Origin: an uncultured Methylomonas sp.
Lineage (GTDB): Bacteria > Pseudomonadota > Gammaproteobacteria > Methylococcales > Methylomonadaceae
Reading direction: 5' to 3'
NCBI GenBank assembly: GCA_936941155.1
Contig: CAKZJE010000047.1
Coordinates: forward strand, 11,154-75,153
Length of the DNA: 64,000 nt
Part shown: piece by piece, positions 26,641-61,314 of the stretch
Numbering within the stretch: position 1 is the first letter of the stretch
How the letters are laid out: each line of letters opens with the position of its first letter
Position numbers and translations under genes: made by a program
Notes under the pieces: model-generated
Databases searched by the model: none
What the model saw: only the letters and a program-made list of their open reading frames with translations
Told to the model about the DNA's origin: nothing

Positions 26641-26765
26641 AACTCTTTATTATCAATGATTTTGTTATAAAAACTGTCAAACTATCTTGTGTAGATGCCT
26701 ATGCGTGAACGTAGTTCCGTTGTGTTTCAATGTCTCTACAGTATTACCCATTGAGTCAATCGCCA

Positions 26766-27472
26766 TGAACCATGAAGAGATTGTTTATAGCTTTAAATTA
26801 GAAACCGCAGAAATAAAGCAAGTTCATATCAGTTTAGAGCAAAACACCTTGAATCTTGTGCATCCAATTCCGCTGAAAAACTTACCCGCATGGACTCATC
26901 TTGACTTCAATCAATGCCCTAATTGCCCGTTAAAACATCGCCTCCATTGCCCGATTGCCGCGAATATTTCTGTGCTGGCAAGTTCCTTTACGCAGTATCC
27001 TTCTTATCAAAAATCCGAAGTTCATGTGCAAATGAACTCACGCAGCTGTGTGGAAACCACTGATGTGCAAAGCGCATTGAGTTCTATTTTAGGGATTTAT
27101 ATGGTGACTAGCGGCTGTCCTGTGATGGATAAATTACGCCCGATGGTGTATTTTCATTTACCCTTTGCTACGCCGTTAGAAACGCAATATCGTGCGATTA
27201 CCATGTATTTAGTGGCGCAATATTTGCGCAACAAACAAGGCAAAAAGCCTGATTGGGATTTAAAAGGCTTTATTAAAATGTATGCCGAAATTCAGAAAGT
27301 GAATTTTGCGTTTAGTAAACGCTTAAGTGAGATTGATGAAAACGCCACTAACAAATGCGCTTTGATTATTTTGGACGATATAGCGTCGTTGATTCACTTA
27401 AATTTTCAAATAAATGAAGAAATTCCGGCTGAATTAGAATCTATTTTTCAACATTTTTTGGATGAAATTTAA
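26766..27472 (+). CDS. Conserved hypothetical Cys-rich protein (CPNCP...HCP...SGCP), paralog 1
   Basis: It is about 55% identical to 27723-28448. The start was moved to MNHEE by alignment with the paralog. Confidence 0.5.
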
Positions 27473-27722
27473 AGGCAATTTCAAAAAAACAACCTGCTTA
27501 CAACTTCAGTATTTAGAGGCGCAACTATCTATATTATATTGCAAGCAAGTAATTGATTTATTATGATTTTTAGAAACGAAAAACCTTGCGTCTCTACGCT
27601 AAAAGCAACGTACTAGCAAAAGTTTGGACGATTTTTGTAGTCTAACACGGATGCTCACGCAATCACCGCCACCTTAAAATGTACGTTTACGCACTTATCA
27701 ATCGCTCTATTTTGAGTACATT

Positions 27723-28448
27723 ATGATGCCTGAAGAAAATACCCATTATGAATACCGCTTTACCCTTGACTCAGGGGAAACCAAAACTATTGAGGTTTGC
27801 TTAAATACAGAAACACTGGCGATTATTTGCCCGCCTGCTGATGCGCCACTGCCAGACTGGACGCGGCTTGAATACAGCCAATGCCCAAATTGCAATTTAT
27901 CGGCTAAAACACACACGCATTGTCCGATTGCTGTGAATATTTCAACCGTTGCCGATGCTTTTAGCGAACTCAGTTCTTTTCAGCAGGCAAAAGTTTCTGT
28001 GCAAGGCAATTCTCGACTGTTTATTAAAACTACCGATATTCAGACCGCATTAAGTTCAATTTTAGGAATCTATATGGTGACTAGCGGCTGTCCGATTATG
28101 GATAAATTGCGTCCGATGGTGCGTTTTCATTTGCCATTTGCCACATCGCTGGAAACGCAATATCGCGCGATTTCCATGTATTTAGCCGCTCAATATTTGC
28201 GCTATAAAAAAGGCAAAAAGCCCGATTGGGCGTTAAAAGGTTTTGTGAAAATGTACGAAGAAGTGCACAAAGTTAATGTGGCGTTTACCAATCGCCTCAA
28301 TGCCGTTGATAAATGTGATGCCAATAATAGTGCGCTGATTGTATTAGATAGCTGCGCTGAGTTGATTAATTTTAATTTTGAAATGGATGAAGAAGTGCCC
28401 AAAGAATTGGAAGGAATTTTTAAGCCGTTTACAAATAGCGCACTTTAA
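27723..28448 (+). CDS. Conserved hypothetical Cys-rich protein, paralog 2
   Basis: It is a tandem paralog with conserved CxxC, HCPIA, MVTSGCP and RPMVxFHLPFAT motifs. Confidence 0.55.
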   Translation: MMPEENTHYEYRFTLDSGETKTIEVCLNTETLAIICPPADAPLPDWTRLEYSQCPNCNLSAKTHTHCPIAVNISTVADAFSELSSFQQAKVSVQGNSRLFIKTTDIQTALSSILGIYMVTSGCPIMDKLRPMVRFHLPFATSLETQYRAISMYLAAQYLRYKKGKKPDWALKGFVKMYEEVHKVNVAFTNRLNAVDKCDANNSALIVLDSCAELINFNFEMDEEVPKELEGIFKPFTNSAL

Positions 28449-28486
28449 AAACCCAAGTTGTTGTATAACAAAAACATTATCACCCA

Positions 28487-28518
28487 AACCTTTCAGGTCT
28501 TTAAGACCTGAAAGGTTT
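28487..28518. repeat. Palindromic element family R2 (aaacctttcaggtctttaagacctgaaaggtttt), likely terminator
   Basis: It is a second copy of the hairpin at 15310-15341. Confidence 0.6.
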
Positions 28519-28578
28519 TACGCCCAGAATGCTATTCACTAGCACTTCACTTTTTAATTCACCTCACAGGAACATATC

Positions 28579-29175
28579 ATGCAAACAACCATTAAAGTCT
28601 GGGATATTCCCTTGCGCATTTTTCATTGGCTGCTGGTGGCAGGGTTTAGCGTCGCTTATATTACCGAAGAAGATTTTTTAAACATCCATATTTGGGCTGG
28701 TTATCTAGTTATCGGACTGCTGGTTTTTCGCCTGATTTGGGGATTTATTGGCAACGAATATTCCCAATTTAAAAACTTTCTATGCAGTCCAGCGGAAAGT
28801 TTTGCCTATTTCACACAAGTATTAACCCGCACCAACAAACGCTATATTGGACACAATCCTGCTGGAGCAGCCATGATTGTGATGATGTTGGTGAGTATTT
28901 TAATCACATCGCTCACAGGTTTAGTATTGCTGGAAGTCATTTCAATTCCGATTGGCGCACAAATCAATTCTGCGTTTTTAAAGTGGATTATGGAATCAGG
29001 TTACGGTCATTCTGTCGAAGAAATTCACGAGTTTTTTGCCAATTTCAGTGTGCTTTTAGTTGTAGCGCATATTGCGGGTGTGGTTTTTGAGAGTATTTCA
29101 CACAAAGAAAACCTAGGCAGAGCCATGATGACAGGCGAAAAACGCAGTGAAGACGCTCCTTCTGATGGCGCATAG
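28579..29175 (+). CDS. Cytochrome b561-family protein (CybB-like)
   Basis: It has four TM helices with conserved His (RIFHWLL, IHIWAGY, VAHIAG). Confidence 0.7.
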   Translation: MQTTIKVWDIPLRIFHWLLVAGFSVAYITEEDFLNIHIWAGYLVIGLLVFRLIWGFIGNEYSQFKNFLCSPAESFAYFTQVLTRTNKRYIGHNPAGAAMIVMMLVSILITSLTGLVLLEVISIPIGAQINSAFLKWIMESGYGHSVEEIHEFFANFSVLLVVAHIAGVVFESISHKENLGRAMMTGEKRSEDAPSDGA

Positions 29176-31981: not shown

Positions 31982-32120
31982 GTAATGGCTTGTTAAAAAT
32001 CTTTGCAACTAATCAGGCAAAGAATAAGTTCTCTGACAGTGGCTTTAGGAGTACAAACGTTGCGTTTGTACTCCTTTTTTTTACCTAAAAATTTTTTTGA
32101 ATTTAATTAGTTGAGGCAAA

Positions 32121-32235: not shown

Positions 32236-33069
32236 TTATCGCTGCACATACACCGCGCCTTGAAATTGCACTTCTTTAAATTCTTTTCGATTGCCCCACA
32301 GCGATTCGGTTGCGCCGACTAATAACGCCCCCTCCGGCGTGAGCATTTTCACCATTGCTGATAAAACTTTGCTGCGCACATCCGCAGAAAAATAAATCGT
32401 CACATTGCGGCACAAAATCAAATCGAAACGACCTAAATGTGAAAAATCGCGGGTCAAATTAATATTTGCAAAATGCACCCGCAGACGAATATTAGGTCGC
32501 AACACCCATAAATTTTGCCCTTGATGCTCAAAATATTTATTGCGGCGCGTTAGCGATAAACCGCGATTAATCTCAAAATCGTTATAACGCGCATGGCGGG
32601 CTGTTTCTAAAGCCGCTTGTGAAATATCCATTGCGTGAATTGAAAAACAACGCGCTAAAGCAGCGGCGTTTTGGCGTTGGCACATTTCATCAATCAACAT
32701 CGCCAGCGAATAAGCCTCTTGCCCTGTGGAACAGCCGGCAATCCATATTCTAATTTCTTGCGCCCCTTTTTCGAGTTTTTTGAACAACGCCGGCAAAATG
32801 GATTTTTCCAAAGCATTCCAGCAAGAATCATCACGAAACCACAAGGTTTCGTTTGTGGTCATTAAATTAATCACCGTAGGCAGCAGTCTTTCGGGTTCAA
32901 ATTGCAAACGAGAAAACAATTGCCCAAAACTATGCAGCCCTAAACTGGTCGCAAAATCGCTTAAGCGCGTTTGCACTAAATAATCCTGATCGTCTTGCAA
33001 ATTGATGCCGCATTGCTCTTTTAAGAGTTGGCTAATTTGTCTAAATTCGTGTTTAGTAATTGCTTGCAT
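32236..33069 (-). CDS. cheR: Chemotaxis protein methyltransferase
   Basis: It has CheR N- and C-terminal domains (SAM-binding GCSTGQEAYS). Confidence 0.85.
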   Translation of the reverse strand: MQAITKHEFRQISQLLKEQCGINLQDDQDYLVQTRLSDFATSLGLHSFGQLFSRLQFEPERLLPTVINLMTTNETLWFRDDSCWNALEKSILPALFKKLEKGAQEIRIWIAGCSTGQEAYSLAMLIDEMCQRQNAAALARCFSIHAMDISQAALETARHARYNDFEINRGLSLTRRNKYFEHQGQNLWVLRPNIRLRVHFANINLTRDFSHLGRFDLILCRNVTIYFSADVRSKVLSAMVKMLTPEGALLVGATESLWGNRKEFKEVQFQGAVYVQR

Positions 33070-33078
33070 ACGTCAGTT

Positions 33079-34185
33079 TTATAAAGTTAATTGGTTGATG
33101 CGGTTGCCAAGCTCGTTTAACGAAACGACTTCATCGGCTAATCCTGCTTCAAAAACACTGCCGGGCATTCCCCAAACCACTGAAGAATCTTGGTCTTGCA
33201 CCAAACATTTCGCGCCGTTGCGTTTTAACATCCGCACGCCTTCTGTGCCGTCGCGTCCCATGCCTGTCATCACCACCGCTAAGATATTGCCGTTAAACGT
33301 GGCTGCGACTGAGCGAAATAATACATCAACAGAAGGGCGGCAATTATTCACGGGCGGGGTTTCATTCACAGCCAAACAGTAATCGCCATCAAGATGGCTG
33401 CGTAACACTAAATGTTTGCCACCGGGCGCAATATAAATTCGACCGGGCAGTAGTTTTTCGCCACCTTTAGCTTCGCTGACTTGCAGCGGGGTTTCTTCAT
33501 TGAGTTTTTTGGCTAAAGATTCGGTAAACATTGGTGGCATGTGTTGCACAATGATAATCGGGCAGGGCATGGCGGGATTGAGTTTTGGAATTAATTGATC
33601 CAAGGCTTTCGGGCCGCCGGTGGAAACTCCAATCACGATTAAGTCAATTTTGCCTTTGCGACTGCGCAAGGGCTGTGCAGTTGTTTCAACAATTCTTTGG
33701 CGTGCGACAAGGGTAGGTGTTGCTGTTTGCAGAGTTTCCGTGCGCAGCGGAGGAGTGCGACTCAATAAGGCATATTTTTTAGTCTGCACCAGACTAATCA
33801 AAGGCTGTAGATAATTGACTAATTCAGCAATTCCTTGTTCTGGACTGCTGACTTTAGGTTTTGCCACAAAATCTAACGCGCCGATTTGTAATGAGCGCAA
33901 AGTTTCGCGACTGCTTTTCAAATCAAAGCTGCTAATCATAATCGCTTCAATCGCAGGATGCTGTTGTTTGATTTGCCGGAGTGTTTCCACGCCGTCCATG
34001 TCGGGCATTACCACATCCAACAACACTAAGTCAGGTTCTAACATATTGATTTTTCTAATAGCAATCTGTCCAGAAGCGGCTGTGCCAATACATTCTGCAT
34101 CTGCGATTTTGTCGATAACCGACATCAAAATTTGTCTATAGCTAATACTGTCATCGACAACGAGAACTTTTACTTTGTCATTCAT
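33079..34185 (-). CDS. cheB: Protein-glutamate methylesterase/response regulator
   Basis: It has an N-terminal receiver (VLVVDDS...DVVMPDMDG) and a CheB methylesterase domain (GVSTGGP, MTGMGRDG). Confidence 0.9.
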   Translation of the reverse strand: MNDKVKVLVVDDSISYRQILMSVIDKIADAECIGTAASGQIAIRKINMLEPDLVLLDVVMPDMDGVETLRQIKQQHPAIEAIMISSFDLKSSRETLRSLQIGALDFVAKPKVSSPEQGIAELVNYLQPLISLVQTKKYALLSRTPPLRTETLQTATPTLVARQRIVETTAQPLRSRKGKIDLIVIGVSTGGPKALDQLIPKLNPAMPCPIIIVQHMPPMFTESLAKKLNEETPLQVSEAKGGEKLLPGRIYIAPGGKHLVLRSHLDGDYCLAVNETPPVNNCRPSVDVLFRSVAATFNGNILAVVMTGMGRDGTEGVRMLKRNGAKCLVQDQDSSVVWGMPGSVFEAGLADEVVSLNELGNRINQLTL

Positions 34186-34271
34186 TATTTAAGTGAGGGA
34201 GGGGCGAGAAAACAAATAGTTTTGAGGTGAACAGGATGAATTTGTGTGGGCGATTAAGCAAAAACAGTTTT

Positions 34272-34340
34272 TTGTAGGTTCGGATTTATCCGAACAATGC
34301 GAAAAATGCGATTAATGCGAATAAATTCGCCCCTACAAAA
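34272..34340. repeat. MITE-like element family R3, full copy (TIR tttgtagg / cctacaaa, internal hairpins)
   Basis: ttgtaggttcggatttatccgaacaatgcgaaaaatgcgattaatgcgaataaattcgcccctacaaaa. Confidence 0.6.
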
Positions 34341-34407
34341 ATAAAAATTATTTTTCAATAGCTTAGGTGTATTTATTTGCGTGGAGACGCGATTAATCGC
34401 ATCGCTA

Positions 34408-34923
34408 CTAATCTTTTAATTTGAAGCTTTCATTTTTTAAATTGCAAACACAATTAATTAACTGCTCAATTGCAAGAATAATAATAAATTGGTTTTGTTG
34501 TTGAATCATGCCGGAAATAAACTCTTCTTTTTCATTCGCGACATTTGGCAAGGGCGGCAAAATTTCTTTTTCCTCCACATTCAATGTTTCGCCCATTTTA
34601 TCAACCAAAATTGCCAGCGGGTCTTTAATCGCAATCTCGGTATTAAAAGTTTTGCGGGTTAATTTATTCAGCCGCGTTAATTCCGCTTTGGTTTTTAAAA
34701 TAATCAAGGCGCGTTGCGCTAACGGCACATTGGTTTTTTGCTCTAAAAAAAACTGCGGATCCATCACGGTTAAAATCTGTCCGCGCAAATTCATAATCCC
34801 AATTAAATATTCAGGAGCTTCAGGCACGGGGCTGACTTCATGCAGCCGCCCAATTTCTTTGGCTAATAAAATATCAATCGCATAACGCTCTGATCCTAAA
34901 TAAAAACTGATAAATTGGCGCAT
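34408..34923 (-). CDS. cheW: Chemotaxis coupling protein
   Basis: It is a single CheW-like domain of 171 aa. Confidence 0.85.
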   Translation of the reverse strand: MRQFISFYLGSERYAIDILLAKEIGRLHEVSPVPEAPEYLIGIMNLRGQILTVMDPQFFLEQKTNVPLAQRALIILKTKAELTRLNKLTRKTFNTEIAIKDPLAILVDKMGETLNVEEKEILPPLPNVANEKEEFISGMIQQQNQFIIILAIEQLINCVCNLKNESFKLKD

Positions 34924-34953: not shown

Positions 34954-37900
34954 TTATTCTGAATAACGTGCCAATGTTTTTAGCACCAGCTCTTTGTCCA
35001 ATTTAACCAGCCATTCATTAAATCCGGCTTTTTTTCCATCTGCGATGGTTTGTTCATCATTCAAGGTGGTCAAGGCAATCACAGGCAATTTATCCCAACG
35101 TGGATTGGCGCGAATATTTTTCACCATTTCTCGCCCGTCCATAATCGGCATTTCTATATCACTTAACACCAAATCAAAATCCTGCTGATGCAGCGTATCT
35201 AAGCCTTCGCGTCCATTGTTTGCGGTGGTGACTTTATACCCGCCCGCCTCGATACACTCTTTGATCACTTTCATAAAAAATGGCGTATCTTCCACTAATA
35301 AAATATGTTTGTTTTTAGCTTTTTCAGCATTGATTTCTAGTTTTTCCACGCTATCTGGCTCGCCGGCTTCTAAAATACTGTGCAAATCTAACATCAAGGT
35401 GATTTTTCCATCTAACAGCATTGAGCCTAAAATACCGGAGTTTTTCATGGCGGTATTTTCCAGTTTGATGACCGCGCTTTTGGTATCAACAACCCGATTA
35501 ATCAATAGCGCGACCGGAATTTTTGTGCGTTTAGGGATAATAATATTGGCAATTGCTTCATAATTATTGGGTTTTTGCACCGGCAAGCAGTTTTCTAAGC
35601 GCAATAAACGCATTTGTTCGCCGCGATATTCAATGTATTCATTGCCAGCTATAAATTGAATTCGCCTAACATCCAAACTATCAATCCTCCGAATCCACGA
35701 CAGTGCTAGGGCAAAATGTTCTTCAGTGTTATTGTCAAAAATCAATAACGATTGCGGCTCTTGCTCCACTTTGCGTTGCTGTGAGGAGCTGTTATTGTCT
35801 TTTTGCAGCTCTGTGTAAGTGAGTTGATTTTTATGGATATAGCCTTGTACATCAATAATCATGGCAATTGCACCATCACCTAAAATACTAGTGCCGGAAA
35901 AGTTTTTCACCTGCCGGAAATATTCGGGCATTGGTTTGACCACAATTTCTTCACTGCCTAAAATTTGATCAACGATGACGGCTACGCGATTATTTTCTGC
36001 TTTAATAATCAAAATATATAAAGGATTTTCGATACTTAGCTGAGGATTTTCTTCAGTGGCGGTAATCATATTTAAACTTTCTGCCAAAGAAATCAGCGGT
36101 AGAAAACTTCCGCGTAGCGATAACATTCGTTGCCCGCGCACTTTTCCCACTTGTTTGGCGTAATCATCGGCTTCTAACAGCACCATTTCTTCTAAATTGC
36201 TTTGTGGAAAAGCAAAACGGCAATTTTGTACGCTGACAATCAGGGCAGAAATAATCGCCATTGTTAGCGGGAGCGTCATTGTGATGCTGCTCCATTTGCC
36301 TAATTGCGAGTTAATGTCGATGCTGCCGCCAATTTGTTCAATATTGGTTTTCACCACATCCATGCCAATGCCGCGTCCTGAGACGGAGGAAACCGTTTTG
36401 GCAGTGGAAAATCCGGGCGTGAAGATTAAATTCATTTTTTCTTTCGCGCTCATTTTTTCCATGATGTCGGCGGTGATAATGCCGCTTTCTAAGGCTTTGT
36501 GCGCAATGAAATCGGGGTCAATACCTTTGCCGTCATCACTGAATTGAATCACGACTTGCCCGCTTTCATGGAAGGCTTTTTGCAAAATCGTGCCGCACGG
36601 CGGTTTGCCTTGTTTAATCCGTTCTTGTGGCGTTTCGATGCCGTGATCTGCCATATTTCGAATAATATGAGTGACAGGATCACTTAACGATTCAATAATG
36701 GTTTTGTCTAATTCAACATCCGCGCCTTCTGTAACCAGCTCTATTTGTTTGCCTAAATCTTTTTCTAACTGTCTGATTAAACGAGGGAATTTATTAAAAA
36801 TTACCCCGATAGGCTGCATTCGTGTGCCCATAATTTCTTCCTGCATTTCAGTGGTAATGCGGTTGAAATTATGCAAAATTACTTTTAAGCCGGGGGTTTG
36901 CACAATCAGCGGTTCACAGAGTCTAAACACTTGATTACGAACTAAAACTAATTCGCCTGCTAAATCAATCAGTTTATTGAGACGTTTTACATGCACCCGA
37001 ATGGTTTCTTCCGTTTCGGAGTGACTAATAATGGCAGGTTCTTCTTCAATAATGGGCTTAGCAAGAGAGGTTGTCGCAGGAGGTGACGGAATGGACGTTA
37101 GGTTTTCGGTGCTTTGTGTGGCGACCGCAACTGTTTCTTCTATTGCGGCATTGTGTTCGCTTTCGTGGGCATCTAGGTTTTTCAGTTGCTTTAGGCGATG
37201 ACATAATTGCTCAATATCAATGCCGTTATCGCCTTGATGTTGTTCAATTAATTGAATTAAACAGTCATAGCCTTCCAGCAAGGTATCAATATATTTTCCT
37301 TCCATCACCACTTGCGCGGCTTTTGCCAACGCGAGAATATCTTCCATGATGTGCGTGAGGCGCGAGATTTTTTCCAAGCCTAAAAAACTTGCGCCGCCTT
37401 TAATGGTATGCACATTGCGAAACAACTCATTGAGTTGCTGCATATTGCCGGGATTCGCTTCCAATGCGAGCAACGCGGTTTCTATGCGTGGCACACATTC
37501 CCGCGCTTCTTCAATAAAACTGCTTAATAAATCATGTTGTGCGAGTTTTTCTTCCTCTGAAAATTCATTTTCAGAAAAAACAAAAGGATTCAGATTGGCT
37601 TGGTTTTTAAAATCGGTAAAGTTTTCTTGCTGATTGATTGGCGTAGTTTCAGGAAAGTCATCCTGTTCTTCAATGAATTCTGGCTCAGAAAATTCGTTAG
37701 AGGGTTCAAAAAACTCAGCTTCGCTACGATGGGATTCTGCTATTTGTGCAAAGGCATTGAAATGCTCATTAGGGCGTTCAATGAGCTGATTGAGTTTCTG
37801 GCATTCCTGTTCTACATTGATATTATTACTGTTTTGCGGATCATCAATCATTTGCACCAGTCGGTCTTGACTGGACAGCAGCACATCAATATGTTGGTGG

Positions 37901-38148
37901 GTGAGCTGTAATTTGTTGCTGCGAGCTAGCGACAATAAGCTTTCCATGCTATGCGATAAGGTGCTGATATTGTGCAAGCCAAAAAAACCCGCGCCGCCTT
38001 TGATGGTATGCACACTGCGAAATAATTCATTCAGTACGGTTTGCTCATCGGGTTTATTTTCCAAAGATAATAAACTTGCCTCAATCACAGGCAGATGTTC
38101 GCGCGCTTCCTCAATAAAGGAGTTGATTAAATCATCACTGTCGTCCAC
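34954..38148 (-). CDS. cheA: CheA-family hybrid histidine kinase with two N-terminal HPt domains, HATPase, CheW-like domain and C-terminal receiver (WspE/ChpA-like)
   Basis: Two HPt motifs are present (LFRSVHTIKGGAGFFGL and LFRNVHTIKGGASFLGL). It also has an HATPase_c domain, a CheW-like domain and a C-terminal REC (LLVEDTPF...LSDIEMPIMDG). Confidence 0.85.
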   Translation of the reverse strand: MDDSDDLINSFIEEAREHLPVIEASLLSLENKPDEQTVLNELFRSVHTIKGGAGFFGLHNISTLSHSMESLLSLARSNKLQLTHQHIDVLLSSQDRLVQMIDDPQNSNNINVEQECQKLNQLIERPNEHFNAFAQIAESHRSEAEFFEPSNEFSEPEFIEEQDDFPETTPINQQENFTDFKNQANLNPFVFSENEFSEEEKLAQHDLLSSFIEEARECVPRIETALLALEANPGNMQQLNELFRNVHTIKGGASFLGLEKISRLTHIMEDILALAKAAQVVMEGKYIDTLLEGYDCLIQLIEQHQGDNGIDIEQLCHRLKQLKNLDAHESEHNAAIEETVAVATQSTENLTSIPSPPATTSLAKPIIEEEPAIISHSETEETIRVHVKRLNKLIDLAGELVLVRNQVFRLCEPLIVQTPGLKVILHNFNRITTEMQEEIMGTRMQPIGVIFNKFPRLIRQLEKDLGKQIELVTEGADVELDKTIIESLSDPVTHIIRNMADHGIETPQERIKQGKPPCGTILQKAFHESGQVVIQFSDDGKGIDPDFIAHKALESGIITADIMEKMSAKEKMNLIFTPGFSTAKTVSSVSGRGIGMDVVKTNIEQIGGSIDINSQLGKWSSITMTLPLTMAIISALIVSVQNCRFAFPQSNLEEMVLLEADDYAKQVGKVRGQRMLSLRGSFLPLISLAESLNMITATEENPQLSIENPLYILIIKAENNRVAVIVDQILGSEEIVVKPMPEYFRQVKNFSGTSILGDGAIAMIIDVQGYIHKNQLTYTELQKDNNSSSQQRKVEQEPQSLLIFDNNTEEHFALALSWIRRIDSLDVRRIQFIAGNEYIEYRGEQMRLLRLENCLPVQKPNNYEAIANIIIPKRTKIPVALLINRVVDTKSAVIKLENTAMKNSGILGSMLLDGKITLMLDLHSILEAGEPDSVEKLEINAEKAKNKHILLVEDTPFFMKVIKECIEAGGYKVTTANNGREGLDTLHQQDFDLVLSDIEMPIMDGREMVKNIRANPRWDKLPVIALTTLNDEQTIADGKKAGFNEWLVKLDKELVLKTLARYSE

Positions 38149-38157
38149 GCATAACTC

Positions 38158-40191
38158 CTAGTAAACGCCTTTGGCATTGAGAGCGACACCGTATTGCTTG
38201 TCGGTTTTTAAAATATGATCTAACAACCAATCTTTTAAAAACTCTAAAATACTTTCCGCCACTTCATGGACATTTTTGGTTTTTAATTGTGCTTGAAACA
38301 TTTGCACTTTATTCACAAAAGCCGCGTGAATGGATTTATGCGATTCCAGCTCTGGCCAATGATTATCTGTCAGCAGTTTTTCTTCGTAGCCAAAATGGAA
38401 CACGGTGTAATCGGCTAAATAATTCACAATATCTTCCATCGTTTCTTTGCTGATTTTATTTTTTACGCCGTAATCAAGCCGATTAATTAATTCCGCCAAA
38501 ATGCTATGTTGTCTGTCGATTTCTTTAATGCCAACGCTATAAATGGCTAAGTCCCAAACGATTAAAGGTGTATTAGCATCCCGCGTTTTGCCGCTTGTAG
38601 TATCCGCGTGTTGTTTGCTGTTTTGTGGAATTAGGGGGCTGACAGAGCTTTGTGCTGTTCTGTTGTGACTAAAAAAACTGTTATCTTGTTGATAAGCTTG
38701 TTCTTTAAAATTAAAACTGTTTGCTGATTGCACTAATCGCTGTGCCATAGCGGACAATTCGCTGGCATTTTGGTGACTTTGGGTGATTTCCTGCGTCATT
38801 TTTCCTAAAGTGGAGCGAATTGAATGAATATTGCTGTTCACTTTTTTGATGCTGCTCGACACTTCGCTACTGGAATTCGCTGCTTCTTTCACACCGGCAG
38901 CGGCTTCTTCCAAAGCGCGTGCGGAACTACGCGAGGCTTGCGAGGCTTCTGCCGCAGAGCGAGTAATTTCTTTTAGTCCTTTGGTAGCTTCTTGCAAATT
39001 CAACACAGATTCTTTGCTGGCATTCGCAATCCCATCAACTGCTTCTGTAATGGTGTCGGCGGAAGAGCTTTGTTGTTCTACTGAAAAATCAATGGCTTGG
39101 TTGATTTCAGCAACTTTATTAATTACTGTATTAACCGCTTGCGTGTGTTTTAACGCTTCAGCCGCATAATTTTGAATTTGTTCAATTTGGTCGGCAATTT
39201 CATTATTTGCCTCGGCGGTTTGTTGCGCTAAATCTTTAATCTCGCCCGCGACCACCGCAAAACCTTTACCCGCTTCGCCTGCACTGGCGGCTTCAATTGT
39301 CGCGTTTAAAGCTAACATGTTGGTTTGTCCGGCAATGCTGTCAATTAACTTCACCACGCGCCCGATTTTTTTGGCTGTTTCGCTTAGCTGATTCATGGTG
39401 GTGAGCGTTTCTTGTGCACTGGCTGTGGCATCTGCGGAAATTCGCATGGCATTTTGGGCATTTTTCGCAATTTCTGACATCGAAACCGACATTTTTTCGG
39501 CAGAATTTGCGACCGTATTAATATCTTGGGAGATGCGGTCAAAACTGTGATTAATTCCCACCATATTGGTTGAGGCTTCTTCAGCACTGGCGGCGACAGT
39601 ATTAATATTGGTACTTAATTCATAAACAGACGCGCTGACTGAGCTTACATTGCCGGAGGCTTCTTCAATTGAGGTTGCCATGATGTTTACGTTAAAGGCA
39701 ATATGTTCAGAAGAGGTGGCGGTTAACGCTAAACGGCAGTCAACATCGTTGGCACTTTCTGCAATTGAAGCAGAAGATTGTTTCAGTTTTTCAGAGGCTT
39801 GCGACACATCGGACACAGAATGATTAACGCGCTTAATCACACTGGACACTTTATCAACAAAGCTATTTAGCACATCTGCAAGTTGTCCTGCCTCACCGCT
39901 TTGGTCTGAAACTAAGCGTTTATTAAAGTCACCCCGCGCAATTTCTTCAGTGCTTACCACCAGTTTGCTAATAGACTGATAATGACGACTTAAATTTTGA
40001 TGAATAATATACGCCAACAAATAAGCCGCGATTGTGCCTAATACAAACACAGGGATTGCAGCTAATAAAAAATCAGCCATTACAAACGGCGCAGGGCTTG
40101 TTAATGCCATGACCGAAAAAGCCAAGGTGAGTAACCCTAAAGTAAAGCCTATAACGGTAATGAACAGAGAGTGTTTATTATATGAATACAT
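38158..40191 (-). CDS. Methyl-accepting chemotaxis protein with minimal periplasmic loop and C-terminal hemerythrin (HHE cation-binding) domain (DcrH-like)
   Basis: It has two N-terminal TM helices and an MCP signalling domain. The C-terminal 135 aa ([22 protein letters not shown]...HFGYEEKLL...HKSIHAAF...DWLLDHI) match the bacteriohemerythrin iron-ligand pattern. Confidence 0.8.
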
Positions 40192-40212: not shown

Positions 40213-41490
40213 TTAGCCTAAAATAACTTGGTTTCTGCCGTTTTTCTTTGCTTCATAAAGCAGTTTGTCTGCTTTTGTTAGTGCCGATTCTAAGTTTTCT
40301 TCTAATGTAGTACAAACGCCAATACTGGCTGTGATTTTTAAAATGAGGTTATCAGACAACTGAATTGGATTTTCTTCAATTCGTGCGCGTAAACTTTCAA
40401 AAATAGAACCGGCTTCTTCTTGCGAAGTATTGGATAATAAAAAACCAAACTCTTCACCGCCAAAACGTGCCACTAAATCTCCGGCTCGAAAGCTTCCGTT
40501 TAAAAGCTGCCCCATTTTTTTTAATACAACATCACCTGCATCATGTCCGTAGGTATCATTCACACGTTTAAAAAAATCAATATCAATTAAAGCAACAATA
40601 CATTGTTTTTTAGATTTATAAGCGCGGTTGAAAAGTTTTTCGCCGACTTCAAAAAAATGTCGCCGATTATAAAGACCGGTTAAAAAGTCACGGCTAGCAA
40701 TAAATTGCAGTTCTTTAATATAGCCTAATAAATCCATATTTTGATTAATGCGACAAAAGAACTCTTCTTCTAAAAAAGGTTTATTAATAAAATCGCTGCC
40801 GCCAATTTTTAAAAATCGTGCGGATAATAAATTATTGCCATAAGTGGACATGCCAATAATTGCCATATCTTGTTTGCTGTAAATGGCTCTGAGTTTTTTG
40901 GTCAGCTCAAAGCCATCCATTTGTGGCATATTAAAATCGGTAATCACCAACATAATATCTTTGTGTTCATGGGCAATATCGAAAGCCTGTTTACCATTTT
41001 CAGCTTCTAATACCATAAAACGATAAATAGACAATAAACGCTTAATATGTTTTCTAGCTGTTCTGGAATCATCCACAATTAAAGCTTTAATACGGGTATT
41101 TCTATTCAGTTGTTTTAATAATAAAACAATGTATTCAATATTAGCGGGGCATTCTTTTAGCACATAATCAACAATGCCTTTGCCCAGCATTCTGTCGCGT
41201 AAATCATCATCAAACTTTCCAGTAAATACAATGGCTGGAATATTATAATTTAAAACATAATCAACCACTTCGCCGTCTGGAGCATCAGGCAAATTTAAAT
41301 CTAATAAACTAGCAAAAAAGGTGTATTTCTTTGATTCGATTAATGCGATTAATTCAGCATAAGTTTCAGCAATCACAACTCTAAATTCAGAGTTTGCTTC
41401 CACACTGGTTTTAAGAATACGAGCAAATACTTTGCTATCTTCTACAACCAAGATGGTTTTTTTACTATTATCATATTGTTGATCAGTCAT
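40213..41490 (-). CDS. Response-regulator diguanylate cyclase (REC-REC-GGDEF, WspR-like)
   Basis: It has two receiver-like domains and a GGDEF domain with an intact GGEEF motif and an upstream RxxD (RAGD) I-site-like motif. Confidence 0.85.
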   Translation of the reverse strand: MTDQQYDNSKKTILVVEDSKVFARILKTSVEANSEFRVVIAETYAELIALIESKKYTFFASLLDLNLPDAPDGEVVDYVLNYNIPAIVFTGKFDDDLRDRMLGKGIVDYVLKECPANIEYIVLLLKQLNRNTRIKALIVDDSRTARKHIKRLLSIYRFMVLEAENGKQAFDIAHEHKDIMLVITDFNMPQMDGFELTKKLRAIYSKQDMAIIGMSTYGNNLLSARFLKIGGSDFINKPFLEEEFFCRINQNMDLLGYIKELQFIASRDFLTGLYNRRHFFEVGEKLFNRAYKSKKQCIVALIDIDFFKRVNDTYGHDAGDVVLKKMGQLLNGSFRAGDLVARFGGEEFGFLLSNTSQEEAGSIFESLRARIEENPIQLSDNLILKITASIGVCTTLEENLESALTKADKLLYEAKKNGRNQVILG

Positions 41491-41622: not shown

Positions 41623-42258
41623 TTAGAGCGTTAATTCTTTATTGATAATTTGTTTTAAGGCTTTTAGCATTTTAAAAATGGCAAAAATATCATTGCCATC
41701 CGCACTATAATTATTACTAATACAATATTCATTGCCTTGTAACACTATAAAGCTCCACCCCAAGCCAATGATAACCAAACCATAAATAGGCAATTTGTTG
41801 TTATTCATTTCACGCGCAACCAGCATTGCTGCCAAAACTTGTCCATCTGGAGTGCCTTGATTTTCAACGTGACGTTTATATTCGTGCAAACAGAAATAGG
41901 GGACATGCGGATTGCGTGTTCCCGTTGCAATCATGCCATCAACCATTCCAGAAAGTTGATATTCACCGATAACGCCGGATAAAGGTCGTTCTAAAAAATA
42001 GCCAATTCGTTCATCATCAATATTAGCCGTGACAATCATAGGGCTAATGAATTTATTTTCTAACTCAACTTCATTCCAAGCTTTACCACCTCTAATCAGA
42101 GTTTTTTGCAAATTTAATATATATTGTTTTTCAAATTCACTGATTTCTTCGTGATTGCTTTCCCACTGAACTAATAAGTCAGATTGCCAGATTTGTTTTA
42201 ATCCAAAAGCCTCATCTAAGCCATCTAAATCCCACTCTTTAAAAGTCGCTGTTTTCAT
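41623..42258 (-). CDS. Hypothetical protein (211 aa)
   Basis: This is a long ORF with no recognisable family. A D...EYK spacing is weakly reminiscent of PD-(D/E)xK. Confidence 0.4.
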   Translation of the reverse strand: MKTATFKEWDLDGLDEAFGLKQIWQSDLLVQWESNHEEISEFEKQYILNLQKTLIRGGKAWNEVELENKFISPMIVTANIDDERIGYFLERPLSGVIGEYQLSGMVDGMIATGTRNPHVPYFCLHEYKRHVENQGTPDGQVLAAMLVAREMNNNKLPIYGLVIIGLGWSFIVLQGNEYCISNNYSADGNDIFAIFKMLKALKQIINKELTL

Positions 42259-42322
42259 TTGATTTTTTAGATTTAAGTTTTATGCAGGCGTGCAAAACGG
42301 ATTTTGCACGCCTAATCATTTT

Positions 42323-48429: not shown

Positions 48430-49491
48430 ATGACTAAACTTTGCAAACGAGCATTTTCGCTGATTATTTCTGGATTTATGAAAGTCTTTTATAGTGTTGT
48501 TTTCAGTTTCTTCGCTGCTTTGCCCTTTGCACTGAATGCCGATGATGATGACCAAAATAGCAAAGCAGCTGCGAAGTCTTCTGCAACGCTCAAAGGTCAA
48601 AACCTGATTGTGCTGGATAAAGCCCAGCAACTGGCTTCCGGCTTGAAAACGATTAAATTAAAAGCCATAACGCATCGAGCTGAATTACTTAGCTACGGCA
48701 CAGCGATTAGCATAGAGCCGCTAGTATCTCTGCAAAATCAATATTTAACCGGATTAGCTCAACAAAGTAGTGCGAAAGCAAAAGTAGTTTTTAGTCAAAA
48801 TAATGTGAATCGTTTAAGCTATTTACATCGTGAGCAAATTATTGCCAGTCGGGTTTTACAAGAACAGCAGGCAGTCTTGCAAGCGGATAAAGCGACATTG
48901 GAGAGCAGTCATTATTTAAGGGCGCAAATGATTAGCACCGCGCAATTGCTGTGGGGACAGACCTTAACCGATTGGATAGTAAGTTCTGATGCTAGATTGA
49001 CAGCGTTAGCGCAGCAACGCATGAGCTTATTAAAAATCAATTTTCCGGCTAATATCGCGATAAACCAGCCGATAAAAACCATTTTTGTTGCGCCAACAGC
49101 GAATCGAAACCAGGCGATTGCAGCTGAATTTATTTCATCTGCACCGCAAGCCGATAATTTTTCGCAAGCACAGCAATATTTTTATCAAGTGCCAATGCAG
49201 CAAATTAAAACCGGAATGCGCGTGAATGCTTGGATTCCAACACAGCAGCAAGGGCAAGCAGGTGTTATGATTCCAGAATCAGCGGTGTGTTGGCATTTAG
49301 GACAAGCCTTGGTTTTTACGAAAGTTGCACCGCAGCAATTTAGTCGGCAAGTCCTTGTGGATTACCAAAAACTGGCAGGCGGATATTTTGTACGATCTGG
49401 TGTAAAAGCAGGCGATGAAATTGTAAATGTGGGAGCACAAATGCTACTTTCACAAGAGTTTAAAGGACAGATTCCTGATGAAGACGATTAA
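48430..49491 (+). CDS. Secreted Gln-rich hypothetical protein; the C-terminus is weakly reminiscent of efflux membrane-fusion proteins
   Basis: It has a signal peptide and no confident domain. Confidence 0.35.
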   Translation: MTKLCKRAFSLIISGFMKVFYSVVFSFFAALPFALNADDDDQNSKAAAKSSATLKGQNLIVLDKAQQLASGLKTIKLKAITHRAELLSYGTAISIEPLVSLQNQYLTGLAQQSSAKAKVVFSQNNVNRLSYLHREQIIASRVLQEQQAVLQADKATLESSHYLRAQMISTAQLLWGQTLTDWIVSSDARLTALAQQRMSLLKINFPANIAINQPIKTIFVAPTANRNQAIAAEFISSAPQADNFSQAQQYFYQVPMQQIKTGMRVNAWIPTQQQGQAGVMIPESAVCWHLGQALVFTKVAPQQFSRQVLVDYQKLAGGYFVRSGVKAGDEIVNVGAQMLLSQEFKGQIPDEDD

Positions 49492-49560
49492 TTAACGTAA
49501 GTTATGATGTTAGAATATAGTGGCAATACTCGTTAGCTTAACAACCTAGGTAATCACAGA

Positions 49561-51198
49561 ATGAATAGCGATTCAAAGTTTGAAGCGATTCCCAGAATAA
49601 AAAACTATAAAATTCCAATTAAATTGGAGGAATCCGCTTTATCTGAATGGTTAATCCATATAGGACATTTTGATAGCCTAGAATCTTGTGCGCAAATTTT
49701 AGTTTTATTACAGGCCTTAAACAAAGAAACGCTCGCATTTAAAAATAGAATTGTGTTTTTAGTGATGATTAGTGACTATCTTAAACACTTTATTAGTTAT
49801 TTGAGTAATCCCTGTTGGGATGCCGCTTTTCCGCTCTCTGATGATGAAAATGCTTATGCGCAGGTGATTACTTGGAATTATTTAACGCTAGGACAAAGTT
49901 TTTTTATTGCAGCAGACAGTGCAAATAAAAAAAATGACGCGACTTTTTGCATTGCAATGGCTTTGCACGCATTAGGACAAGCGCAATTACACATTGCCGC
50001 CACTTATACCGTTCCTAATGATGGATTTTGGAGTTTGTTGTATAAAATTTTTGCGTGGGCAGAAAAAAAAGCGTTGCTGCATTTACCGATAGAAAGTGCG
50101 GAGTTAGAGGGACAAACGATTAATAGCCTGTTTGCAAGAAGCCTTATGTTTCAAGTGTGCGATACCAATCAATATGCGCCGAGAGATATTCGCACTATTT
50201 TTAAAGTGTTAGGTCAAACCTGTCACACTGTGGCGATTGATGTTTATCCTAGTCAATTAGAAGGCTTATGTATCTTAGATTTAAAATCGGATGATCCGCC
50301 TCTTAACGTAAAAAATCAGAATAAAATAGGTAGCGACTTAGTGCGTTATTTTTCTCCAGTCGCGGTGGCAAATATTATTAACCGTGATTTTATCCAAAGC
50401 AGTGTTTGGAGTGGGGCGTTAAAATCAATTAACACAACGCTGTTTAGTCGTGTGATTAAAACGCTGGGATTGACGCAAAAAAGGCAATATACCCGCAAAC
50501 GTGAAGAGCATAATCTTTTAGGCGTGATTGGCTTTCAGGACATTATTGGCTTTTTATATAAAATAAATAAAACCCCGTTTGTCGATTTACCTCAGGTTAA
50601 TGCGAACTCTTCTGAGAAAGAATTCGGCATGAATATTGAAAGCACAGAAGAAGAGCGTAATCTAAAACACAAAGAATTAGGCACTCGCAATCAGCAGATT
50701 TGGCAACCTTCTAAACACATCACAGAAATTCCAATCAAAAAAGTGTCGTTAAAAGAAATCAATGTGTGTGATAGCAGTGCGAATGGCTATGCTGTGACAT
50801 GGCAGCAAGACTACACCAAAACCAGAATCGGCGATTTATTTGGGATTATTTCAGCGGATAAAAGACGTTTGGAAATTGCCATTATTCGCAGGATTGCTTT
50901 AAACAACAATAATAACTTTAACACCGATTTTAGATTTGGCGCGGAATTGCTGGGGTTTGAATCAGAAATTGTCTATCTTTCAAATTTAAATAAAAATCAG
51001 CCCGGCACATGGGCTGTGTTTATTCCTGAAGTGGAGCTGTTAGAGCGTCCGGCGGCAGTTATTTTTGACATCGGACATTTTAAAGTCGGTGACAATGTTT
51101 ATATACACCGATGCGGAACAAAGTTTCTTTGTTTGTTGTTAAAAGAGCTGCATTCCACTGTTGCCATTGCGCATCTTGAAGTGGTTATCATCGGCTAA
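49561..51198 (+). CDS. Hypothetical protein (545 aa)
   Basis: This is a long ORF with no recognisable domain. Confidence 0.35.
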   Translation: MNSDSKFEAIPRIKNYKIPIKLEESALSEWLIHIGHFDSLESCAQILVLLQALNKETLAFKNRIVFLVMISDYLKHFISYLSNPCWDAAFPLSDDENAYAQVITWNYLTLGQSFFIAADSANKKNDATFCIAMALHALGQAQLHIAATYTVPNDGFWSLLYKIFAWAEKKALLHLPIESAELEGQTINSLFARSLMFQVCDTNQYAPRDIRTIFKVLGQTCHTVAIDVYPSQLEGLCILDLKSDDPPLNVKNQNKIGSDLVRYFSPVAVANIINRDFIQSSVWSGALKSINTTLFSRVIKTLGLTQKRQYTRKREEHNLLGVIGFQDIIGFLYKINKTPFVDLPQVNANSSEKEFGMNIESTEEERNLKHKELGTRNQQIWQPSKHITEIPIKKVSLKEINVCDSSANGYAVTWQQDYTKTRIGDLFGIISADKRRLEIAIIRRIALNNNNNFNTDFRFGAELLGFESEIVYLSNLNKNQPGTWAVFIPEVELLERPAAVIFDIGHFKVGDNVYIHRCGTKFLCLLLKELHSTVAIAHLEVVIIG

Positions 51199-51232: not shown

Positions 51233-51283
51233 TTGTGTAGGTGCGGATTTATCTGCACTGTGCGAATGAATTTGCACCTACAG
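51233..51283. repeat. MITE-like element family R3
   Basis: ttgtgtaggtgcggatttatctgcactgtgcgaatgaatttgcacctacag. Confidence 0.55.
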
Positions 51284-59067: not shown

Positions 59068-61314
59068 GTGCAGAGTCTTAAAGATTTGCAGAGGTGGACA
59101 GTGGACAATTTTTCCGTCATCGTTTTTAATACTTTTATGAAAAACAAATTAAGCCTAAGCAAAATAATGAAAATCTTAAAAAAACGCCCATTTAAAGTCG
59201 ATTTACTAAGCTGTTTTTTGGGTTTAATTCTGTTTACGGTAGTTATTGTTATTTATAGCTACGAAACCCATTCAAAAAACACGATTAGCTTAGTCTCAGA
59301 CTTAGCTAATAGCCAGCTTCATCATGCAGTGAGTAAAACTGCCCGACAAATTAATATTGCTCAATATACACCCGAATTAATATCAAATTTATTATCCGAT
59401 CATTTTGATATTGAACATGATAAACAGCTAGAGCAACAAATTATTAAAGTCTTAAATAAAACACCTTTTCTATTTATGTGTTTTATTGCAGATGAGCAAG
59501 GCAATTTTATTTTAGGATATAGAAATAAATTTAATACCATTTCTACTAAAGTTATTCATAGAACAGAACAAAAATCGCAAGAATTGTCTAAATATCGTGA
59601 TGAAAAAGGCGTTGTTTATAAAGAAAAAACAGAAATAAATCCCGCTTATGAACCAAGAAAAAGATTGTGGTATATCGGTGCAAAAAAGAATTTACAACCC
59701 TATTGGACTGAAATTTATCGGTTTTATCATAATGACTTTGATAATGCTTATGCCGCGAAAACTGAAAATAAAAACTTATACGGTATTACAATTGCCAATC
59801 CGATTATTAATGATAAAAAAAAATTAATGGGCGTAGTTGGTGTTGATATTAGTCTGATGGAATTATCAGAATTTTTATCCAAATTAAAAATTGGAAAAAA
59901 TGGCAAAGCATTAATTGTAAATGATACAAGGCAACTGATTGTGTATCCTTTTGCCAATAGTGAGAAATTAATTGCTACGCCAGAGCATCAAGGAATGCGT
60001 ATTGAAGATATTCAAATTCCTTGGTTAAGAGAAGGTGTGGAAGGGTATTTTAGAAAATCAGAAAAAACTTTTTTCTATACTTATCAAGGGCATATTTATT
60101 TAGTGAAATCGCATGATTTTTCCGCAGAAATTGGCAAACCTTGGTATTTAATTATTGTGGTGCCGATTGATGATTTTTTAAACAACATCAAACAAAGTCG
60201 GTTAGTTAATTTTGCGATTACATCAATCATGCTGTTGTTATCGGTATTATTTTCTCTATGGTTATCACGCAGTTTATCAAAACCGCTTGAAGCAATGACG
60301 AAAACGATGCGGCAAATTAATGATTTAGATTTTGCCAATTTAATTCGCACTTCTTCTTCAATTAAAGAATTTCAACAAATGTCAGATGCGTTAAATGCGA
60401 TGACGCAAGGTTTAAAAGCCTTTTTAAAATATATTCCGCCAGAAGTCGTTGAAGAATTAATTAAAAAAGGCGAAAACGTGACATTAGGCGGACAGGAATT
60501 GCAATTAAGTATTTTGTTTTCAGATATTGAAGGCTTTACTGAAATCACCGAAGACAGTGCGCCAATGGAAATCATGGCTGATTTAACCTATTATTTCGAC
60601 CAAATGGTGAAAGTGATTGTGTTAAATAATCAAGGGACTGTGGATAAATTTATTGGTGATGCGGTGATGGCATTTTGGGGTGCGCCAAGTTACACCAATG
60701 AACATGCGCGGCTTTCGTGTTTAGCCGCTTTGCAATGCCAAGCGGAAATTGCCAAATTCAATCAGCAAAGAATTGCCGAGAAAAAACGCGTGTTTAATAC
60801 TCGCATTGGCATTCACACCGGCACGGCAATTGTGGGCAATATTGGCTCAAGCGATCGTTTTAATTACACCGTGATTGGCGATAATGTGAATTTAGCTTCG
60901 CGATTAGAGGGATTAAATAAACTCTATGAAACTAATATTATTGTAAGTCACACCACTTATCGGCAGGCGTATGAATTTTTTGTGTTTAGACCGCTGGATT
61001 TTGTGATTGTGAAAGGAAAAAATATCGGGATTAAAGTTTATCAATTGCTGGCTGAAAAAGATAAATGCGATGAAAAAACTTTGGCGTTAGTTGAACAAGC
61101 GACAAAAGCGTTTAATTGTTATTTAGATAAAAACTTTACTGAGGCATTACAGATTTATTTGCAGATTTTAGAAACCTATCCTGATGATAAACCTGCAAAA
61201 GTGATGATTGAAAAGTGCGATAAGTTTATTGAAATTCCCCCTGATGAAAACTGGACAGGGGCAACCCGTGTTTTTGAAAATCGAATTTTTATTAGGAATA
61301 AACACGATATGTAA
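59068..61314 (+). CDS. Membrane sensor adenylate/guanylate cyclase (Cache-like periplasmic domain, HAMP, class III cyclase domain, C-terminal TPR-like tail)
   Basis: It has LSILFSDIEGFT and FIGDAVMAFWGAP cyclase motifs. An alternative start at 59137 (MKNKLSL) is possible. Confidence 0.8.
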   Translation: MQSLKDLQRWTVDNFSVIVFNTFMKNKLSLSKIMKILKKRPFKVDLLSCFLGLILFTVVIVIYSYETHSKNTISLVSDLANSQLHHAVSKTARQINIAQYTPELISNLLSDHFDIEHDKQLEQQIIKVLNKTPFLFMCFIADEQGNFILGYRNKFNTISTKVIHRTEQKSQELSKYRDEKGVVYKEKTEINPAYEPRKRLWYIGAKKNLQPYWTEIYRFYHNDFDNAYAAKTENKNLYGITIANPIINDKKKLMGVVGVDISLMELSEFLSKLKIGKNGKALIVNDTRQLIVYPFANSEKLIATPEHQGMRIEDIQIPWLREGVEGYFRKSEKTFFYTYQGHIYLVKSHDFSAEIGKPWYLIIVVPIDDFLNNIKQSRLVNFAITSIMLLLSVLFSLWLSRSLSKPLEAMTKTMRQINDLDFANLIRTSSSIKEFQQMSDALNAMTQGLKAFLKYIPPEVVEELIKKGENVTLGGQELQLSILFSDIEGFTEITEDSAPMEIMADLTYYFDQMVKVIVLNNQGTVDKFIGDAVMAFWGAPSYTNEHARLSCLAALQCQAEIAKFNQQRIAEKKRVFNTRIGIHTGTAIVGNIGSSDRFNYTVIGDNVNLASRLEGLNKLYETNIIVSHTTYRQAYEFFVFRPLDFVIVKGKNIGIKVYQLLAEKDKCDEKTLALVEQATKAFNCYLDKNFTEALQIYLQILETYPDDKPAKVMIEKCDKFIEIPPDENWTGATRVFENRIFIRNKHDM

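Follow-up and report, generated by a model that had tools for sequence, protein, structure and literature searches.

The hemerythrin (Hr) domain analysed here forms the C-terminal part of an MCP (methyl-accepting chemotaxis protein) encoded in a 64,000-nucleotide stretch of contig CAKZJE010000047.1 (the window). This protein is the sole receptor of a six-gene operon that also encodes a diguanylate cyclase, CheA, CheW, CheB and CheR. The receptor is a membrane-anchored protein of the DcrH type whose C-terminal hemerythrin is its only recognisable input module, and the operon is Wsp-like, of the 'alternative cellular function' kind, with the MCP-Hr protein as its dedicated receptor. We consider it probable (roughly 60%) that the genes form one signalling chain, in which O2 or the redox state would act on the hemerythrin, the hemerythrin on the MCP, the MCP on CheA, and CheA on the cyclase and its product cyclic di-GMP (c-di-GMP), with adaptation by CheR and CheB.

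The receptor consists of the following parts, as delimited with profile matches, hydropathy, alignments and AlphaFold2 (AF2) models with their per-residue confidence (pLDDT); TM stands for transmembrane helix:
38158–40191, minus strand: MCP-Hr receptor, open reading frame (ORF) for 677 aa with HAMP (residues 73–115), MCPsignal (244–410) and Hr (554–667) in one polypeptide
39847–40191, minus strand: membrane hairpin (TM1 ≈8–31, 6-residue loop 32–37, TM2 ≈38–64) and HAMP domain (≈66–115), from hydropathy, AF2 and PF00672 (residues 73–115)
38719–39846, minus strand: MCP signalling hairpin, residues 116–491 (PF00015, E = 1.8e-33; AF2 helices 100–303 and 305–491)
38563–38718, minus strand: flexible tether, residues 492–543, joining the C-terminal helix of the bundle to the hemerythrin, from column identity and pLDDT
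38176–38562, minus strand: bacteriohemerythrin domain, residues 544–672, from profile matches, the DcrH alignment and the AF2 model

A preliminary description of this DNA had proposed a bacteriohemerythrin at the C-terminus of the MCP, at 38161–38580. This interval comprises the last 140 of the 677 codons of the ORF, and the peptide quoted for it is the exact minus-strand translation. As the plus-strand frame across the interval is rich in stop codons, the feature is assigned to the minus strand. The first ≈6 residues are linker and fall outside the profile-defined domain. The domain itself scores above the curated cut-offs of the bacteriohemerythrin profile NF033749 (E = 6e-33; 113.7 bits, cut-off 84), of TIGR02481 (E = 1.2e-31; 109.3 bits, cut-off 51.75) and of PF01814 (E = 5.3e-14; 53.2 bits, cut-off 25.3; residues 554–667), which bears the proposal out.

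The best solved relative is DcrH-Hr of Desulfovibrio (PDB 2avk, E = 1.6e-20). All seven Fe ligands of DcrH (H23, H59, E63, H78, H82, H118, and D123) are matched, by H562, H599, E603, H618, H622, H659, and D664, respectively. The H-HxxxE-HxxxH-HxxxxD ligand motif (five His, one Glu, and one Asp) is complete with no ligand missing, and the bacteriohemerythrin-like spacing of H, E, and D residues pointed out earlier was recovered in full. Neither of the two outcomes named beforehand as grounds for refutation, an insignificant profile E-value or the loss of more than one ligand position, was obtained. The ligand codons are:
38506–38508, minus strand: H562
38395–38397, minus strand: H599
38383–38385, minus strand: E603
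38338–38340, minus strand: H618
38326–38328, minus strand: H622
38215–38217, minus strand: H659
38200–38202, minus strand: D664

Among 24 diverse C-terminal Hr domains of MCPs, H618 is nearly invariant and the other six ligands are fully so, and the same was seen in an alignment of 42 full-length sequences. The residues that we take to line the O2 pocket (L565, F600, W655, L656, I660, and Y667) pair with L26, F60, W114, L115, I119, and Y126 of DcrH. They are invariant or nearly so among the relatives in both alignments, except for L565, which is the majority residue. O2-pocket positions are also given in a part of PMC3770913 that cites French 2008.

The AF2 model of the domain (mean pLDDT 93.5) is a four-helix bundle, with an N-terminal loop followed by helices 19–40, 45–72, 78–101, and 104–136. 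Searching the PDB with Foldseek, DcrH-Hr (2avk) was the first match (TM-scores 0.89 and 0.94, root mean square deviation 1.4 Å, 35% identity), followed by the bacteriohemerythrin of Methylococcus capsulatus and then by myohemerythrin. DcrH, which had been named as the reference example, is also the closest characterised relative. Judged by its sequence and predicted fold, the domain is a hemerythrin of the O2-binding diiron type, predicted to bind iron and O2.

The stimulus of such a domain could also be something other than O2. It might read the redox state or H2O2 through irreversible autoxidation, respond to NO, or report iron availability through the occupancy of the diiron site, an explanation that partly overlaps with the chain proposed here. 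Bacterial Hr sensor domains do autoxidise fast, and the hemerythrin-like domain of FBXL5 is an iron sensor. However, the domain is closest to DcrH-Hr, which is the one sensor hemerythrin with a measured O2 adduct (Kd 0.3 μM; PMC9388753), and the hydrophobic residues of the O2 pocket are kept. We therefore regard a stimulus other than O2 as unlikely, and since O2 binding precedes autoxidation, O2 sensing and redox sensing are not mutually exclusive.

No periplasmic ligand-binding domain was found in the receptor by the hydropathy scan or in the AF2 model, where the loop between the TM helices is just residues 32–37. Sensing is therefore cytoplasmic or membrane-based, which agrees with the cytoplasmic sensing suggested before. 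The full-length AF2 model has a mean pLDDT of 79, and MCP-Hr orthologues align over 100% of the receptor length. The signalling tip lies near G305, inside a segment (≈287–325) that is invariant in the 42-sequence alignment. The 44H Thermotoga receptor Tm1143 aligns with residues 162–461 alone. As the bundle helices 100–303 and 305–491 extend past this alignment, this suggests a signalling bundle ≈4–5 heptads longer per arm than in Tm1143, or roughly 52H.

The tether between the bundle and the hemerythrin has many S, N, Q, and P residues, varies in length and has a column identity of ≈28% among 23 orthologues, compared to 80–97% in the bundle and the Hr domain. In the full-length model, segment 492–547 precedes the Hr bundle (residues 548–673), and its pLDDT drops below 50 at residues 498–536. 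The hemerythrin thus hangs on a flexible tether from the membrane-proximal end of the bundle without a continuous helix, which affects how the two could be coupled. A LIPQ sequence (hydrophobic-hydrophobic-Pro-Gln; residues 520–523, 38623–38634, minus strand) is kept in 23 out of 23 orthologues within this otherwise variable and disordered tether, and may be a short linear docking motif.

DcrH of Desulfovibrio vulgaris (PDB 2avk, 2awc, and 2awy) has the same order of HAMP, MCP signalling domain and C-terminal hemerythrin, and the sensor is cytoplasmic in both proteins. The Hr domains share 35% identity as well as all seven ligands and the pocket residues. The two receptors differ in their periplasmic part, where DcrH has a domain between the TM helices (PMC9388753) and the receptor described here only the 6-residue loop. 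For DcrH, an output to flagellar anaerotaxis has been proposed, while the receptor here shares its operon with a diguanylate cyclase. The hosts differ too: that of DcrH is a sulfate reducer, while the host here, judging by the nearest relatives, probably belongs to the Methylococcaceae, a family of aerobic methanotrophs.

A receptor of this shape might take its input elsewhere. The stimulus could enter through the membrane hairpin, as proposed for the surface or membrane sensing of WspA in the Wsp system of Pseudomonas, leaving the hemerythrin to buffer or scavenge O2 locally or to act as a docking module. The stimulus of WspA indeed appears to be independent of its periplasmic domain (PMC8846402), single-domain bacteriohemerythrins of methanotrophs are thought to deliver O2 (PMC12607906), and the long disordered tether with its conserved LIPQ is reminiscent of the C-terminal tethers that recruit CheR and CheB to other MCPs. 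Yet each MCP-Hr relative among the matches found with this Hr domain has its hemerythrin at the C-terminus, in MCPs that diverge widely, and the seven ligands are invariant (H618 nearly so). This constancy of position and ligands is what would be expected of a sensor module. Moreover, one hemerythrin per receptor amounts to a negligible store of O2. A receptor in which the hemerythrin is not the input is accordingly highly improbable in our view.

The operon in which this putative hemerythrin sensor is encoded contains, in gene order:
40213–41490, minus strand: REC-REC-GGDEF diguanylate cyclase, 425 aa, first gene (Pfam; PDB matches 3luf and PleD)
38158–40191, minus strand: MCP-Hr, second gene and sole receptor
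34954–38148, minus strand: hybrid CheA, 1064 aa, with two Hpt domains, dimerisation domain, HATPase, CheW-like region and C-terminal receiver (REC), from domain matches
34408–34923, minus strand: CheW coupling protein, 171 aa (PF01584, E = 1.4e-25)
33079–34185, minus strand: CheB methylesterase with N-terminal REC, 368 aa (Pfam; NF001965, 375.8 bits, cut-off 293)
32236–33069, minus strand: CheR methyltransferase, 277 aa, last gene (Pfam)

All genes lie on one strand with intergenic gaps of 21, 9, 30, 222, and 9 nt, and the region is bracketed by hairpins, one at 42286–42313 (after purL) and a 13-bp terminator-like hairpin at 32047–32075 (after cheR). A promoter scan gave 23 sites where 27 were expected.

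The cyclase has a GGEEF motif at residues 344–348 and an RxxD I-site five residues upstream at 335–338 (residues 335–348: RAGDLVARFGGEEF). Its closest PDB matches are 3luf (E = 6.9e-48) and PleD (2e-42). It shares the REC-REC-GGDEF architecture, the GGEEF motif and the RxxD I-site with 3luf, PleD of Caulobacter and CbrR of Campylobacter, but falls below the equivalog cut-offs for both CbrR (NF050064, 267.7 vs. 600) and PleD (NF007135, 218.9 vs. 474). In PleD the second receiver is an adaptor. In both receivers of the cyclase described here the acidic pocket is retained along with the phospho-acceptor Asp, Thr/Ser and Lys (E17/D18, D64, T90, and K112 in REC1; D140/D141, D185, S215, and K237 in REC2), and the partner kinase would be CheA. 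Each Hpt domain of CheA carries an HTIKG motif (H47 and H247), and its C-terminal REC (residues 949–1050) is canonical with D997 as phospho-acceptor.

The likeness to the Wsp system (WspA-F and WspR) lies in the dedicated MCP, the WspE-like hybrid CheA with a C-terminal REC, the presence of CheW, CheB, CheR and a REC-GGDEF-type output, and the lack of a CheY (PMC8846402). There are also several differences. The output protein WspR is REC-stalk-GGDEF, while the cyclase here is REC-REC-GGDEF and nearer to 3luf and PleD than to WspR. Wsp has two CheW proteins (WspB and WspD) compared to one cheW gene here, and the gene order is different. WspA has a periplasmic 4HB domain, which the receptor here lacks, having a cofactor-binding sensor instead; because of this sensor the stimulus is predictable, unlike the still unknown one of WspA. 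The pathway would therefore be Wsp-like in function but is not a Wsp orthologue.

The gene set is conserved. All six genes occur in identical order in three complete related loci (L001, from a Methylococcaceae metagenome-assembled genome (MAG), L014 and L015), and where contigs end inside the cluster (L002, from a Methylovulum MAG, and L016) the parts present match the operon. MCP identity is 65–75% across the five related loci examined (5/5), and the nearest relatives of the receptor, at 75% identity, are found in Methylococcaceae and Methylovulum MAGs. Since the gene set and order are kept while the flanking genes are unrelated, the operon can be regarded as a functional unit. The cyclase gene is always the first of the operon in the complete loci. 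The duplicated N-terminal Hpt of CheA is also present in L001, L014, and L015, and two stretches of CheA match the CheW-like Pfam domain. A sister cluster (L017) has a CheA that is 62% identical and an MCP-Hr with an added periplasmic domain; its contig stops within cheB. The sister proteins P0026 and P0027 have a periplasmic PF21623 domain.

More distant MCP-Hr genes are found in other surroundings. In L022 (1355–13929) two MCP-Hr genes lie with genes for CheA-REC, CheW, CheB, and CheR; next come those for a CheY-like REC, an HDOD/HD protein and CheX. In a SAR324 locus (L018) the MCP-Hr gene adjoins fliM. No che or c-di-GMP genes were found beside the MCP-Hr genes of L020 and L021. We therefore rejected a general link between MCP-Hr proteins and diguanylate cyclases, as the distant genes of L018, L020, L021, and L022 are orphans or stand in other contexts. 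Chemosensory clusters dedicated to a hemerythrin receptor thus recur with differing outputs (a diguanylate cyclase here, CheY/HDOD/CheX in L022 and other contexts elsewhere), and an output through the cyclase is confined to the clade of the window. The related clusters appear to have swapped outputs.

Two further loci combine hemerythrins with c-di-GMP genes. In L019 (3177–7347) REC-HD and REC-GGDEF genes immediately precede an MCP-Hr gene (35% identical), and there is no cheA in the vicinity. This is a second link between an Hr-MCP and c-di-GMP enzymes, apparently independent of the one described here. In the Lambdaproteobacteria-like L021 (1615–5140) a gene for a single-domain hemerythrin follows directly after a PAS-GGDEF-EAL gene, ≈3 kb upstream of the orphan MCP-Hr gene.

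The preliminary description had the receptor wired to c-di-GMP synthesis rather than to flagella, which is what the conserved synteny of the cyclase gene suggests. No CheY, CheZ, or flagellar genes were found in the cluster and no flagellar gene among the ORFs of the window that were scanned, the remainder of which have housekeeping and polysaccharide functions. The alternative is classical aerotaxis, where CheA would phosphorylate a CheY encoded elsewhere, or c-di-GMP would act on the flagellar motor via PilZ-type brakes, and the output would be swimming instead of sessility or biofilm formation. DcrH and other MCP-Hr proteins are conventionally read as aerotaxis receptors (PMC13401364, PMC9388753), and both the CheY-like REC, HDOD, and CheX output of L022 and the fliM neighbour of the SAR324 gene fit such a role. 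The NCBIfam model that best matches the cyclase is that of CbrR, and CbrR of Campylobacter has been linked to motility. Against this, neither the operon here nor the three complete orthologous loci have a CheY or flagellar gene in or beside them, the first position in the operon is always taken by the cyclase gene, and a hybrid CheA-REC is the architecture of Wsp-type systems with functions other than motility (PMC8846402). Aerotaxis as the output is thus rather improbable.

If the operon controls c-di-GMP, we picture the pathway as follows. Binding of O2 to the diferrous site, its oxidation, or both would change the Hr domain, as in DcrH-Hr, where an N-terminal loop is ordered or disordered according to the redox state (PMC9388753). 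This change would bias how the MCP bundle signals, and thereby the autophosphorylation of CheA. The only proposal in the literature for this step is that the redox-dependent ordering of the DcrH-Hr loop is relayed to the neighbouring methylation region (PMC9388753). Phosphorylated CheA would then pass its phosphate to one or both receivers of the PleD/CbrR-like cyclase and alter c-di-GMP synthesis. This phosphotransfer and raised c-di-GMP we infer from the conserved synteny and the intact motifs, and the direction of the response and the phenotype given here are likewise putative. There are precedents in Bhr-DGC of Vibrio cholerae, where the Hr domain regulates cyclase activity (PMC8846402), and in Wsp, where a REC-GGDEF protein is activated by a chemosensory pathway (PMC8846402). 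Finally, CheR and CheB would methylate and demethylate the receptor, and with this adaptation the pathway would report changes in O2 and not its absolute level. The likely output, in a bacterium of the Methylococcaceae type, is a switch between an attached or aggregated and a free-living state where the O2 gradient offers a preferred position.

Several observations weigh against a pathway of this kind. Not even for DcrH has signalling from the hemerythrin to the MCP ever been demonstrated (PMC9388753, PMC13401364), and the long, disordered and poorly conserved tether argues against rigid helix-to-helix coupling. A strict scan for the methylation consensus gave a single site, at residue 256, plus several near matches. 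The sister cluster L017 has no cyclase gene upstream, so the link to a diguanylate cyclase is not universal, and another Methylococcaceae MAG (L003) has a 58%-identical MCP-Hr outside any che operon. CheA could also serve response regulators encoded beyond the 64-kb window.

More tentatively, and with some doubt on our side, the operon might represent an undescribed class of O2-to-c-di-GMP transducer, in which a hemerythrin on a LIPQ-bearing disordered tether gates the array and adaptation turns temporal changes in O2 into pulses of c-di-GMP.

Two other features of the operon region were noted. The 222-nt gap between cheW and cheB (34186–34407) contains a ≈70-nt imperfect palindrome (core ≈34268–34337, minus strand; TGTAGGGGCGAATTTATTCGC...GGATAAATCCGAACCTACA) with an RNA fold z-score of -3.0. 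A 21-mer of the palindrome has a copy with 3 mismatches at 51262–51282 in the window, where none would be expected by chance. As cheW and cheB are only a short distance apart in the orthologous operons L014 and L015, without a palindromic repeat between them, this looks like an insertion inside the operon similar to a repetitive extragenic palindrome or miniature inverted-repeat transposable element (REP/MITE). Between purL and the operon lies orf211 (41623–42258, minus strand, 211 aa), which matches no Pfam or NCBIfam family. Inspection by eye suggests a D...E-x-K-like motif (VDG...HEYK). It was rejected as a member of the operon since it has no family match and is absent upstream of the orthologous operons.

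Neither the hemerythrin domain nor its fusion to an MCP is new, and both follow an ordinary design. The preliminary description regarded such fusions as uncommon outside anaerobes, for which we found no support. Among O2-binding hemerythrins with several domains, an MCP signalling domain followed by a C-terminal hemerythrin is the commonest arrangement (33 + 14 proteins; PMC4919030). Chimeric hemerythrins are spread across the alpha-, beta-, gamma-, and deltaproteobacteria and are numerous in microaerophilic magnetotactic bacteria (PMC2556348); in Magnetospirillum, MCP-Hr genes have been deleted (PMC12442639). Using the Hr domain as query, an exhaustive HMMER search matched 19,797 cluster representatives when the limit was E ≤ 1e-3 and 6,076 when it was E ≤ 1e-10, and an MCP signalling domain was present in 39 of the 150 best 50%-cluster representatives matched. 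Among the relatives detected in the present analysis are proteins of Methylococcaceae, Gallionellaceae, Nitrosomonadales, Nitrospirae, and SAR324 MAGs.

Control of c-di-GMP by a hemerythrin is also known, from one-component proteins. Bhr-DGC of V. cholerae and Bhr-HD-GYP of Ferrovum follow the same logic, where the redox or O2 state of a diiron hemerythrin controls c-di-GMP (PMC8846402, PMC9388753). In those proteins the hemerythrin is fused directly to the catalytic domain, on its N-terminal side, while here the control is routed through an adapting multi-protein array with methylation and a phosphorelay. We found no description in the searchable literature of an Hr-MCP that a complete CheA/W/B/R set couples to a diguanylate cyclase. 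The Methylomonas denitrificans study places the single-domain bhr-77/-88 beside che genes, with no mention of a diguanylate cyclase, c-di-GMP, CheA or an MCP. In the recent methanotroph bacteriohemerythrin survey, the bhr genes listed near che genes are all single-domain, and no cyclase is named. A review of c-di-GMP signalling treats Wsp as the only characterised pathway from a chemosensory system to a diguanylate cyclase, and its stimulus is still unknown.

Elsewhere in the window, three other regions were noted:
26687–29175, plus strand: tandem pair of DUF6901 paralogues (261 and 241 aa), then a gene of the cytochrome b561 family and an ATP-grasp gene of the Ter-operon type
48430–51198, plus strand: adjacent ORFs of 353 and 545 aa with no Pfam match at E ≤ 1e-5
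59068–61314, plus strand: dCache-HAMP-class III adenylate/guanylate cyclase, 748 aa, a further membrane sensor whose output is a nucleotide second messenger

The locus is well suited to the question of whether and how a C-terminal hemerythrin controls an MCP. With no competing periplasmic sensor and with an enzymatic output, c-di-GMP, that is easily measured, the receptor offers a cleaner test system. What adaptation contributes to second-messenger signalling would also become apparent from a Wsp-like pathway whose cofactor sensor is defined, and if the tether-gated transducer suggested above is real, it would be a Wsp-type pathway with a chemically defined stimulus. Methanotrophs that live in gradients could then decide where to settle in counter-gradients of CH4 and O2. 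In ecological terms, the operon may help to account for the way in which Methylococcaceae take up positions and attach at oxic-anoxic interfaces, with consequences for methane emission.

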